Below are positions 27,594-52,289 of a stretch of 64,000 nt of DNA, piece by piece; position 1 is the first letter of the stretch; every line of letters starts with the position of its first letter. Where the stretch lies: assembly GCF_057098645.1 (NCBI RefSeq), contig NZ_CM169472.1; one strand, 5' to 3'. The notes beneath the pieces are model-generated. The model was not told where the DNA came from. It worked only from the letters and a program-made list of their open reading frames with translations, and did no database searches. The position numbers and the translations under genes are program-made.

Positions 27594-27863
27594 ATGCAGA
27601 CAGTGAAATTACGGCAACAAGGAGGAGCCATAATCGTTACTATCCCACGAGATCTTGCCACCGATCTTGGCTGGTCACCGGGCACAGAGCTTACCGTGGA
27701 GAAAAAGGGCGATAGCGTTAATTTGCGCGCCACAGAGCACAAACCTCGTGGGCGTCTTACCGTCGCGCAGTTGTTGAGCCAGATCGATGAAAACGAAATT
27801 AAGGCCTTAAATCAGTCCTCAGAAGGATGGGCTGAAGAGAAAAAAGGTAATGAAGCATGGTAA
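27594..27863 (+). CDS. MazE/ChpS-like (AbrB/SpoVT-fold) type II antitoxin
   Basis: 89 aa ORF MQTVKLRQQGGAIIVTIPRDLATDLGW...; swapped-hairpin-type N-terminus and acidic C-terminus; stop overlaps the downstream toxin start. Confidence 0.8.
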   Translation: MQTVKLRQQGGAIIVTIPRDLATDLGWSPGTELTVEKKGDSVNLRATEHKPRGRLTVAQLLSQIDENEIKALNQSSEGWAEEKKGNEAW

Positions 27864-28225
27864 AGGCACGGACGCCACATCGTGGTGAGATCTGGTGTTT
27901 TAACCCTGATCCGGTTGCCGGGCATGAACTTCGGGGTCCACATTATTGCATTGTGGTAACGGACAAAGAGCTCAACAATGTTTTAAAAGTTGCTATGTGC
28001 TGCCCGATTTCAACAGGGGCAAATGCGGCACGTTCCTCAGGGGTGACGGTGAACGTCCTCCCCCATGATACGCAAACCGGTAACCTGCATGGCGTTGTGC
28101 TCTGTCACCAGCTAAAAGCTGTCGATCTTATTGCCCGTGGCGCTAAATTTCATACCGTTGCCGATGAAGCATTGATTAGTGAGGTGATCGGTAAACTGGT
28201 GAATTTAATCGACCCACAACAGTAG
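27857..28225 (+). CDS. MazF/PemK/ChpB-family endoribonuclease toxin
   Basis: 122 aa ORF MVKARTPHRGEIWCFNPDPVAGHELRGPHYCIVV...HGVVLCHQLKAVDL; pattern parallels ChpBK/MazF (RGDIVLV.FDP..GHE...P.T......G.HGVVL.NQ....D); ATG overlaps the antitoxin stop (ATGGTAA). Confidence 0.82.
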   Translation: MVKARTPHRGEIWCFNPDPVAGHELRGPHYCIVVTDKELNNVLKVAMCCPISTGANAARSSGVTVNVLPHDTQTGNLHGVVLCHQLKAVDLIARGAKFHTVADEALISEVIGKLVNLIDPQQ

Positions 28226-37179: not shown

Positions 37180-39891
<2,712 letters not shown>

Positions 39892-39951
39892 GTTTGTATA
39901 GCGTTTTTATGTACACTCTTTATACTGTATATAAAATCGCACTACAGGCTC

Positions 39952-40236
39952 ATGAATATGAAACCGGAAAGCAAAGAAGCGCCAATCAATATCAGAGCGA
40001 AAGCCTCACAGCGTGACCTGATTGATATGGCAGCGAATCTGGTCGCAAAATCGCGCACTGATTTTATGCTGGATGCCGCATGCCGTGAAGCGCAAGACAT
40101 CTTATTAGATCAACGACTATTCATCCTTGATGACGAGCAATACGATGCGTTTCTCGCTGCCCTGGACGCCCCCATCACTGCTGAGCGTCAGGCCAAAATT
40201 AACGCGTTGATGAATCGTAAATCGCCATGGGAATAA
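39952..40236 (+). CDS. DUF1778-type (RHH, TacA/AtaR/KacA-like) type II antitoxin
   Basis: 94 aa ORF MNMKPESKEAPINIRAKASQRDLIDMAANLVAKSRTDFMLDAACREAQDILLDQRLF...; closely parallels the TacA/AtaR antitoxin pattern; 3' end overlaps the toxin start. Confidence 0.82.
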   Translation: MNMKPESKEAPINIRAKASQRDLIDMAANLVAKSRTDFMLDAACREAQDILLDQRLFILDDEQYDAFLAALDAPITAERQAKINALMNRKSPWE

Positions 40237-40712
40237 CGGCTCCTACTCCCCTAACGTCTGAACATAATCTGGCTGACTTTTGCTGTTCCGATCACGGGAT
40301 GAATGAATGGCTAAAAAAGAAAGCGTTAAAAAATCACAGCACCGGTCTGTCTCGTGTTTACGTTATCTGTATTGTCAATACCCGCCAGGTAATCGGCTAT
40401 TACTGCCTTTCTACAGGCAGTATTCAACGTAATTTGGCCCCTGGAGCCATGCGACGTAATGCTCCCGAATCGTTGCCTGTTGTCGTATTAGGCAGACTGG
40501 CAATTGATCAAGCCTGGGCAGGTAAAGGGTTGGGCGTCGCATTGTTGAAAGATGCAGTCTATCGCACAATGTCCATAGCTCAACAGGTAGGGGTTCGTGC
40601 GCTCATTGTTCATGCCTTAGACGATTCAGTACGCAATTTCTATCTGAAGTATGCCTTTGTACCTTCACCATTCCAGTCACTTACCTTACTGTATCCCATT
40701 ACTCTGGAGTAA
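40227..40712 (+). CDS. GNAT-family acetyltransferase toxin (TacT/AtaT/ItaT/KacT-like; predicted aminoacyl-tRNA acetyltransferase)
   Basis: 161 aa ORF with acetyl-CoA binding motif region (VLGRLAIDQAWAGKGLGVALLKDAV) and overall pattern shared with TacT; ATG lies inside the antitoxin 3' end (CCATGGGAATAA). Confidence 0.82.
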   Translation: MGITAPTPLTSEHNLADFCCSDHGMNEWLKKKALKNHSTGLSRVYVICIVNTRQVIGYYCLSTGSIQRNLAPGAMRRNAPESLPVVVLGRLAIDQAWAGKGLGVALLKDAVYRTMSIAQQVGVRALIVHALDDSVRNFYLKYAFVPSPFQSLTLLYPITLE

Positions 40713-40761
40713 TTTACCTCTACCGGATAGTCACACTGATGAGTCTGATCCGGGAGGGATT

Positions 40762-50771: not shown

Positions 50772-52289
50772 TTAAGGTAGCGTCTTATACATCGGGACAT
50801 AACCTACATCTTCCACCAAACTCTGCCCCTGCGGCGTTAAAAACCATTCCACCAATTTTTGTGTCTCTGACGTCGTATTTTCCCTCGTTACCATAAAGGC
50901 ATCGACGATATAGGGATATTTGCCGTTGCGAATATTTTCCGCAGTCGGTGCAATACCGTTAATCGCTAGCAGTTTTATATTTTTATCGGCGTTCATTTGT
51001 GTTGCGTAATAACGGAAGGTGTAACCTATTGCGTTGTTTGTATTACGATATTCGGCAACGACTTTAATCATTCCCTCCATTACGCTTGCCACTTCGGTTT
51101 CCTGCGGCGAGATCATGCGGACATTTTTCATGACCTGTGATTGCATCACTGTCTGGCTGCCAGAGTCTTCCGGGCGCTGCCAGGTCTGGATCTCCTGATC
51201 GTTACCGCCAACAGTACGCCAATTGGTAATTGCACCACTGAAAATGTCACGCACCTGTTGTTCAGTCAGGGAATTAACCGGATTATCCGCATTGACGATG
51301 AAAACGAATGCTTCACGGGCAAAGGGGGTGTACAGCAAAGTGACACCAGATTCCTTTGCACGTTTTTTTTGCCCACCGGAAGGTTGCGCCACGAAAATAA
51401 TATCAGCATCGCCCTTAACGATTTTGTTATATGCTTCTGGCGTACGAGAGTTTTCCAGATAATCCCAAACGTGAAAATCCTCTGGTATTACACTTAATGC
51501 ATAAAATGCAGAAGCATAAATTGGGTACGCAGCCGTGGCGCCATCGATTCGCGGCCAGTTTTGCCTAAACTGAATTTGCGGTTTGCCACGCAGCGGCGTC
51601 AGTCGATTATTGAGTTTATCGGGTTGCCAGGCCCAGATATCAATATTTTCGCGTACACCGACACCAGGATTGAGCTGTTTATATAAATAACCCTGATAAC
51701 CAGCGACAAAACCAAGCATGAGAAGGATAAACAGGAGGGAATTACGGCAACGTAGCCCGGATGTACCGGTTAAAGGATGTCTGGTTGGCCGGCCGTACCC
51801 CAGCGAAAAACTGATATGCGCGCCAACGGGTATAATGACTATCCACCAGTACTCACCTCCGACTACTGAGACTAACAAAACGCCCAGCCAGGGGAGCATA
51901 AGATCAGCCAACCAACCCGATCCCATCTGGTGAAATTGATAATCTGCCAGATGCAGCGCGATTATCCAGCCAACCAGGATTAATAAAGCGGGTACTAAAA
52001 AAAGACATTGTCGCCAGACGGCTATTTCTCTTTTTTCTGGTGCACTATCGCCTGCCCATACTCGCCCCGAGAAAAATAGCATTAATGCGCCCAGCGCCAG
52101 CATAAAAATGTTGAGCAGAAGGTAAATTGTTGGCGTGATAAGGATATTACAAACTTCAATAATACCGGCAAGTCCGACACCCAGCATAGCAACAACCGCC
52201 GCCAAAAATTGCGTCAGTATGGGGATGCCGAAAAAAGTCATTACCAGCGAGGACAAAATCCATTTTCTGTTTTGCATTATTCTTTCCAT
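50772..52289 (-). CDS. Membrane-anchored PstS-like (PBP type 2) substrate-binding domain protein (gene 1 of accessory operon)
   Basis: 505 aa ORF: N-terminal ~240 aa with ~6 hydrophobic helices, C-terminal ~260 aa resembling phosphate-binding-protein folds (AAYPIYASAF..., LTEQQVRDIFSGAITNWRTVGG..., EDSGSQ, AIGYTFRYYA, INGIAPTAENIRNGKYPY...). Start may be the Met at 52277. Confidence 0.7.
   Translation of the reverse strand: MERIMQNRKWILSSLVMTFFGIPILTQFLAAVVAMLGVGLAGIIEVCNILITPTIYLLLNIFMLALGALMLFFSGRVWAGDSAPEKREIAVWRQCLFLVPALLILVGWIIALHLADYQFHQMGSGWLADLMLPWLGVLLVSVVGGEYWWIVIIPVGAHISFSLGYGRPTRHPLTGTSGLRCRNSLLFILLMLGFVAGYQGYLYKQLNPGVGVRENIDIWAWQPDKLNNRLTPLRGKPQIQFRQNWPRIDGATAAYPIYASAFYALSVIPEDFHVWDYLENSRTPEAYNKIVKGDADIIFVAQPSGGQKKRAKESGVTLLYTPFAREAFVFIVNADNPVNSLTEQQVRDIFSGAITNWRTVGGNDQEIQTWQRPEDSGSQTVMQSQVMKNVRMISPQETEVASVMEGMIKVVAEYRNTNNAIGYTFRYYATQMNADKNIKLLAINGIAPTAENIRNGKYPYIVDAFMVTRENTTSETQKLVEWFLTPQGQSLVEDVGYVPMYKTLP

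Follow-up and report, generated by a model that had tools for sequence, protein, structure and literature searches.

An O145-lineage allele of AtaR2-AtaT2 between malT and rtcA

Two small genes lying between malT and rtcA in a 64,000-nt stretch of Escherichia coli chromosome (the window) constitute, with a probability that we put at about 94%, the O145-lineage allele of the chromosomal type II toxin-antitoxin (TA) system AtaR2-AtaT2, acting by the mechanism proposed below. The AtaR2-AtaT2 pair is an already published and already crystallized system, and nothing contradicts the identification; the correct labels are ataR2 and ataT2 (antitoxin and Gly-tRNAGly acetyltransferase toxin) rather than "hypothetical" or "GNAT family." New here are the exact limits of the inserted block relative to K-12, a conserved nested-palindrome putative operator with a central −10 element that defines a minimal mobile cassette, relatives within IncF transfer regions, antitoxins nearly free of glycine across the subfamily, a decayed copy in another Escherichia lineage, and a private nonsense mutation in rtcR.

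Over 63 kb, only 22 differences separate the window from the O145 strain RM9872 of E. coli, and the ataRT2 allele of the window is that of the O145 lineage. Gene order around the module is malQ-malP, malT, the two small genes, rtcA-rtcB (on the opposite strand), rtcR, and glpR. An initial annotation, made from the letters alone, had proposed a DUF1778/GNAT (TacAT/AtaRT-like) module between malT and rtcA, and the Pfam matches, the PDB matches, and the locus all bear this out. Both of the ORFs that it described are present on the plus strand, at positions 39952-40236 and 40227-40712, sharing 10 nt, and the peptide motifs that it quoted for antitoxin and toxin are found in the two translations. 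As in eight relatives, the two genes are arranged as an operon on one strand, the antitoxin gene preceding the toxin gene and overlapping it by 10 nt. The features to which we refer are as follows.

39889..39952, no strand assigned: putative operator, imperfectly palindromic (arms of 27 nt with 21 matches, 10-nt center)
39896..40784, no strand assigned: block absent from K-12, comprising operator-promoter, ataR2, ataT2, hairpin, and variant rtcA 3' end (pairwise alignment)
39921..39926, plus strand: candidate −10 hexamer TATACT at the palindrome center, aligning with TATAAT/TATAGT in related loci
39958..40236, plus strand: ataR2, DUF1778/TacA-type ribbon-helix-helix (RHH) antitoxin, 92 aa (Pfam, PDB identity, start alignment)
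40227..40712, plus strand: ataT2, GNAT toxin (aminoacyl-tRNA N-acetyltransferase), 161 aa (identity to PDB 7F37_B, Pfam GNAT)
40717..40757, no strand assigned: hairpin with a CCGGAT...ATCCGG core at 40723-40753, between the convergent stops of ataT2 and rtcA
40762..40784, minus strand: variant rtcA 3' end, making RtcA 4 aa longer than in K-12 (K-12 end ...VTRVSIE)

In the O157:H7 strain Sakai, the same pair (ECs_4261/ECs_4262) is flanked by malT (ECs_4260) and rtcA (ECs_4263), and Ovchinnikov et al. gave the ataRT2 locus tags as ECs4261-ECs4262 (PMC7470980). The two systems share the malT-rtcA site and the 10-nt overlap, and their DNA is 99.8% identical over 870 bp; they differ by two conservative toxin substitutions in the window allele, S39T and A50V, which are likewise the sole differences from the toxin of the O157 strain TW14359.

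The toxin and its predicted action

The AtaT2 sequence matches chain B of PDB entry 7F37 at 159 of 161 positions (98.8%; E = 9e-106). That entry, which was tied to the module by sequence match only, contains two toxin chains and four antitoxin chains, a composition that fits T2:R4. End-to-end alignments were further obtained with three toxins of known structure, with E values of 7e-44 for TacT (5FVJ, over 153 residues), about 1e-19 for AtaT, and about 1e-17 for KacT, matches to the three together extending to 1e-16. An HMM search of the kind suggested as a check on the GNAT assignment recovers it, with weak Pfam matches led by PF13508 (E = 1.5e-4) and PF00583 (E = 2.6e-4), the families spanning 1.5e-4 to 1.4e-3. 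No NCBIfam model matched either protein, which reflects the limits of that library and is not counterevidence. Loss of the acetyl-CoA-binding residues of TacT-family enzymes had been named as the finding that would speak against such a toxin; AtaT2 retains both the acetyl-CoA motif QAWAGKGLG (from Q95, with the motif-A glycines) and the catalytic Tyr139.

Considerable experimental information exists for the O157 allele. Expression of AtaT2 is toxic, and the toxicity is abolished by the Y139A substitution and neutralized by coexpression of AtaR2, with which the toxin forms a 99-kDa complex consistent with a T2:R4 heterohexamer (PMC7470980). AtaT2 causes ribosomes to stall at Gly codons, and mass spectrometry of Gly-tRNAGly revealed a shift of +42 Da that is reversed by peptidyl-tRNA hydrolase (Pth) (PMC7470980). 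Liquid chromatography-mass spectrometry (LC-MS) in vivo found that AtaT2 acetylates exclusively Gly-tRNAGly (PMC9177977). The earlier expectation that the toxin acetylates aminoacyl-tRNA thus coincides with what is published for the O157 allele, with Gly-tRNAGly as the target (PMC7470980; PMC9177977), and the mass-spectrometric identification of the target, which had been put forward as an experiment, is already in print for that allele.

Given the 98.8 to 100% identity to the O157 proteins, we infer the same N-acetylation of Gly-tRNAGly and the same neutralization by AtaR2 for the window allele. AtaT2 would acetylate Gly-tRNAGly and render it unusable in elongation, each of the four Gly codons would hold up ribosomes, and growth would cease, with Tyr139 required for the effect. 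AtaR2 would neutralize AtaT2 within a T2:R4 heterohexamer, and Pth could undo the damage. Because AtaR2 is free of glycine, its synthesis could continue during toxin activity, and repression would be restored.

Among related systems, TacA-TacT of Salmonella Typhimurium (PDB 5FVJ, 7F36, and 7AK8) has the same GNAT/DUF1778 architecture, and TacT is likewise reported to be specific for Gly-tRNAGly in vivo (PMC9177977). The system differs in being of another subfamily, its toxin alignment showing visibly lower identity, and in residing at another chromosomal locus of another genus, so that it is not a positional orthologue. AtaR-AtaT of O157:H7 (ECs4308-ECs4307) and KacA-KacT of Klebsiella pneumoniae belong to the same family and form the same T2:R4 heterohexamer, but their toxins are distant, AtaT having 29.2% identity to AtaT2 (PMC7470980), and their targets are broader or different (Met-tRNAfMet and several elongator tRNAs).

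A very unlikely alternative would make the module of the window strain an inactive or decaying remnant carried by linkage, its toxin weakened by S39T/A50V or its operon silent. Such a reading could draw on the observation that both differences from the O157 toxin are amino acid changes, with no synonymous change beside them (2 nonsynonymous and 0 synonymous, counts that are tiny), on the fact that most E. coli genomes are without the module, and on a deletion-riddled remnant at the same site in another Escherichia lineage (see below), by which the module does decay. It is opposed by the full-length ORFs, an antitoxin identical to the crystallized protein, and the intact Tyr139 and acetyl-CoA motif. 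Moreover, both substitutions are conservative and fall at positions that are variable in the family, with T39 also present in the Yersinia, Salmonella, Citrobacter, and Klebsiella relatives, the operator and start-codon context are intact, and both genes are annotated as intact in all 30 of 30 sampled genomes. 

In comparisons with eight relatives from other genera, dN is 0.07 to 0.15 for the antitoxin and 0.17 to 0.29 for the toxin, while synonymous sites are saturated, a substitution pattern that indicates long-term purifying selection on the module. Comparison of the toxin with that of strain GF4-3 yields 5 nonsynonymous and 3 synonymous changes, too few for inference, and within E. coli there may be room for some relaxation of the constraint on the toxin.

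The antitoxin and its lack of glycine

A search with the DUF1778 model, also suggested as a check, bears out the family of the antitoxin, Pfam PF08681 (TacA1/DUF1778) matching residues 12 to 87 of the 94-aa ORF at an E value of 1.2e-19. The antitoxin is identical to chain C of 7F37 at 92 of 92 positions, AtaR2 here being identical to the O157 protein, and it matches 7ZG6_A, from the TacA-TacT system, at an E value of 5e-21. The initial annotation gave it a length of 94 aa. That ORF does exist (39952-40236), but translation almost certainly begins at its second ATG (39958), which yields a protein of 92 aa: this ATG lines up with the start codons of eight relatives, where a GAGG Shine-Dalgarno sequence lies closely 5' of it, strain GF4-3 has ATC where the window has the first ATG, and both RefSeq and 7F37_C use the 92-aa form.

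AtaR2 contains no glycine, and the authors of PMC7470980 noted that it can hence be translated during toxin action. Examination of the 92-aa antitoxins of eight relatives from other genera revealed no glycine in seven and a single one in the eighth, whereas toxins of the same subfamily have 11 to 13 glycines each. The persistence across genera of antitoxins with no or almost no glycine suggests that the Gly-tRNA target is common to the AtaRT2 subfamily.

A conserved nested palindrome as putative operator-promoter

Upstream of ataR2, the initial annotation had pointed to TGTATA/TGTACA repeats and a TATAAA element as a possible promoter-operator. All of these are present, with TGTATA at 39895 and 39926, TGTACA at 39910, and TATAAA at 39930. 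An inverted-repeat search placed the repeats within a larger imperfect palindrome whose arms, 39889-39915 and 39926-39952, are complementary at 21 of 27 positions; none of 1,000 dinucleotide shuffles reached this value, the best attaining 19. Together with an inverted TGTAGT at 39941-39946, the TGTATA and TGTACA elements recur at a spacing of 15 to 16 bp.

We aligned the upstream regions of eight loci, namely, that of E. coli, those of the IncF-type regions of Yersinia, Salmonella, Citrobacter, and Enterobacter, that of a Klebsiella plasmid, and those of the Pectobacterium and Serratia chromosomes. Across these eight genera the outer arms TGTrTAGC ... GCTACACA are invariant and the inner arms ATAyACA ... 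TGTrTAT are conserved; the right outer arm is less regular in the window (GCACTACA) than in the relatives (GCTACACA). Sequences 5' of the left arm are unrelated among the loci, and similarity stops 3' at the toxin stop codon, from which the conserved unit appears to be a minimal cassette reaching from the operator to that stop codon.

The conserved palindrome and the −10-like hexamer at its center make a credible operator-promoter, and conservation across genera supports the earlier proposal of one, but the conserved hexamer is TATACT (39921-39926) and not TATAAA. The best pair in a scan for promoter consensus sequences was TGTACA (39910) and TAAAAT (39932-39937) separated by 16 nt; this pair is not kept in the relatives, whereas the central TATAAT-like hexamer is, and the latter is hence the preferred candidate. 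In KacAT, RHH antitoxin complexes (T2:R4) bind palindromes and display conditional cooperativity, and in the AtaR-AtaT and KacA-KacT systems two RHH dimers occupy the palindromic operator through which the operon regulates itself (PMC6698736). On this precedent, the RHH domains of AtaR2 dimers are predicted to bind the nested palindrome 39889-39952, and the binding would repress the operon's own promoter, as in KacAT and AtaRT. PMC7470980 neither mentions an operator nor gives operator data, and the literature that we searched contained no report of AtaR2 DNA binding or of a transcription start.

The 889-bp block and the altered end of rtcA

Alignment to the K-12 malT-rtcA junction had been suggested as a check on the insertion, and the module is absent there. 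Pairwise alignment and reading of the junctions revealed that 889 bp in the window stand in place of 49 bp in K-12 and other empty sites, homology extending up to GTGTGAGTTT (39895) and resuming from TCACCCGCG (40785). The 49 bp of K-12, where the gap between malT and rtcA is 42 bp, include a REP-like hairpin, similar to that of the block described next, as well as the stop codon of rtcA and the four codons before it. The resulting size difference of 840 bp from empty sites is seen in 5,027 genomes.

At its distal end the block carries a hairpin of its own, with predicted folding energies of −17.7 kcal/mol on the plus strand (z = −0.5, not significant) and −17.2 kcal/mol on the minus strand (z = −2.1). 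A scan for consensus terminators did not call it, and with a plus-strand folding energy that is not unusual it is at best a possible weak two-way terminator. Beyond it, the block supplies the variant end of rtcA, which occurs in exactly the 394 E. coli genomes with the module. Over its last 300 bp, malT has only 90% identity to K-12, as against more than 99% over most of the gene, and rtcA is 94 to 96% identical. Such diverged flanks suggest that the block moves among lineages by homologous recombination.

Distribution, relatives, and mobility

We found the module in 394 of 5,426 complete E. coli genomes (about 7%), always as a single chromosomal copy at the malT-rtcA junction. Carriers include O157:H7, O55:H7, O145, and scattered other strains, and in 5,027 genomes rtcA adjoins malT without the module. 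An exact-match scan with the hairpin sequence, using one genome per bacterial species, retrieved one further locus, in Escherichia sp. MOD1-EC7003, where the gap between malT and rtcA is 228 bp. This remnant is riddled with deletions and has lost the antitoxin gene; what survives is the left operator half, two fragments from within the toxin gene, the 3' end of that gene, the hairpin, and the variant rtcA end. The block thus occurs outside E. coli as well, and its decay proceeds through internal deletions.

We examined the surroundings of eight loci that encode the toxin's closest relatives (65 to 79% identity), which come from Yersinia, Salmonella, Citrobacter, Enterobacter, Klebsiella, Pectobacterium, and Serratia. 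Four loci, found in Yersinia, Salmonella, Citrobacter, and Enterobacter, are flanked by traD and traT of IncF-type transfer regions; the other four have different surroundings, on plasmids or chromosomes. The Klebsiella relative is on a plasmid among hypothetical genes, that of Pectobacterium lies beside a ugp-like ABC transporter, and that of Serratia has sulfur-transport genes on one side and a HAD/ter cluster on the other. PLSDB contains 1,153 plasmids with a relative at 60 to 80% nucleotide identity. The cassettes between traD and traT resemble the window module in their 92-aa antitoxin, toxin of about 160 aa, 10-nt overlap, operator palindrome with a TATAAT center, and antitoxin with no or almost no glycine; they differ in being plasmid borne and in their toxins, with identities of 73 to 79% for the Yersinia, Salmonella, and Citrobacter copies. 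The cassette from operator to stop codon would be a small mobile element, frequent on the IncF-type plasmids of Enterobacterales; it may have reached the gap between malT and rtcA in an ancestral Escherichia within the 889-bp block and would now be segregating in E. coli.

As to what the module does for its carriers, the mechanism could be the same but serve phage defense by abortive infection, and not selfish addiction or tolerance of stress. A link between TA modules in general and abortive infection has been described (cited in PMC7470980), and the family is common on mobile plasmids. Nevertheless, we regard a defensive role as unlikely: the neighboring genes are housekeeping genes and not a defense island, a search of a phage genome collection retrieved no relative of the module, and a location within plasmid transfer regions suits plasmid addiction at least equally well. 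A PADLOC search found no defense system model matching either protein (E ≤ 0.01), although for identification this reflects the limits of the library.

Adjacency to rtcBA

The proximity of the module to the RNA repair operon rtcBA had been remarked on as striking though possibly coincidental, and coincidence is what the comparison favors, rtc genes being absent from the neighborhood of all eight related loci from other genera. We accordingly consider the adjacency to be most likely an accident of the insertion site. A functional coupling would have translation stress caused by AtaT2 induce Rtc, or else convergent transcription or the altered RtcA C terminus modulate it. In its favor, ataT2 and rtcA converge on stop codons separated by only 49 bp and one hairpin, and the final codons of rtcA are altered by the block, the variant end being strictly linked to the module (394 genomes with both). 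That Escherichia sp. MOD1-EC7003 has a decayed copy at this site further implies that the adjacency is old.

We nonetheless hold coupling to be highly improbable. There are no rtc genes within 2.5 to 5 kb of the eight close relatives, four of which sit between traD and traT. RtcB ligates RNA ends bearing 2',3'-cyclic phosphate and 5'-OH groups. The damage inflicted by AtaT2 is instead an N-acetyl group, which is removed by Pth (PMC7470980), and Rtc would therefore have no substrate in it. A literature search yielded no paper joining rtcB with GNAT toxins. An equally faint prospect is that the block is not neutral to rtcA, with read-through out of the TA operon into the convergent rtcA, the longer RtcA tail, or AtaT2-induced stalling at Gly codons altering or inducing Rtc output; if true, EHEC-type E. 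coli would have a lineage-specific stress circuit made up of ataRT2 and Rtc.

Coupling in this strain is also opposed by the state of rtcR, whose product, the activator of rtcBA, is probably inactive. In the window rtcR carries a CAG-to-TAG change at 44301-44303 (Q365*), a change private to this strain among the complete E. coli genomes of the collection, where the closest match over 71 nt has one mismatch. With this nonsense codon, RtcR is probably defective in the window strain.

Possible recombination around the ataRT2 block and a decayed copy at the same site

The sequence flanking the block that carries the AtaR2-AtaT2 toxin-antitoxin module is unevenly diverged from K-12: most of malT differs by <1%, whereas divergence reaches 10% in its last 300 bp (window 39586-39885) and is 4-6% in rtcA (window 40785-41700). 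This mosaic pattern, read from sequence comparison, suggests recombination around the block.

The same malT-rtcA site holds a decayed ataRT2 in another lineage, Escherichia sp. MOD1-EC7003 (L020 6039-6266). There the antitoxin gene has been deleted. What remains is the operator's left half, three pieces of the toxin gene (two internal fragments and the 3' end), the hairpin, and rtcA with its variant end.

AtaRT2-like cassettes in conjugative elements

In four IncF-type loci, from Yersinia, Salmonella, Citrobacter and Enterobacter (L007, L010, L017 and L019), AtaRT2-like cassettes occupy the gap between traD and traT of the conjugative transfer region, with their genes on the opposite strand from the tra genes. 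The toxins of the Yersinia, Salmonella and Citrobacter copies show 73-79% identity, and a relative 60-80% identical is found in 1,153 PLSDB plasmids, mostly from Klebsiella.

The antitoxins of the AtaR2 subfamily are nearly devoid of glycine. Across the window copy (39958-40233) and the relatives among loci L006-L019, eight of the nine 92-aa sequences have none and the ninth has one; toxins of the same subfamily have 11-13. What was previously remarked upon for AtaR2 (PMC7470980) now extends to seven other genera.

Variability of the Rtc locus

In E. coli EH01-18-04-A and similar strains (L005 3035-3821), a deletion that removes rtcB leaves 3' fragments of rtcA and rtcR fused to each other. 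Hence the Rtc locus, too, varies within E. coli and is dispensable there. The window has a nonsense codon in the gene for the rtcBA activator:

43209-44807, + strand, rtcR, sigma-54 activator of rtcBA

Relative to E. coli RM9872 and Sakai, an in-frame TAG replaces CAG at window 44301-44303 (Q365*), truncating RtcR to 364 of its 532 aa. The allele was present in none of the complete E. coli genomes of the collection, where even the closest match over 71 nt is one mismatch away. Either a mutation private to this strain or an error in sequencing could account for it.

Other variable loci in the window

A second type II toxin-antitoxin pair, consisting of two overlapping genes, lies between rpnA/yhgA and bioH (window 27594-28225, + strand):

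27594-27863, + strand, AbrB/MazE-like antitoxin, 89 aa
27857-28225, + strand, MazF/PemK-like toxin, 122 aa

The NCBIfam matches of the pair score below the curated cutoffs. Nothing occupies the yhgA-bioH gap of O157 Sakai.

Between glpD and glgP, at about 48223-51829 on the - strand, is a four-gene island annotated in RM9872 as three hypothetical proteins and one PstS-family substrate-binding protein; the Sakai annotation has three genes here, under other names. The glpD-proximal end of this variable island contains the sole Rfam match above the gathering score in the entire window:

48545-48587, - strand, ES036 (CssrF) sRNA, 39.3 bits (threshold 37.6)
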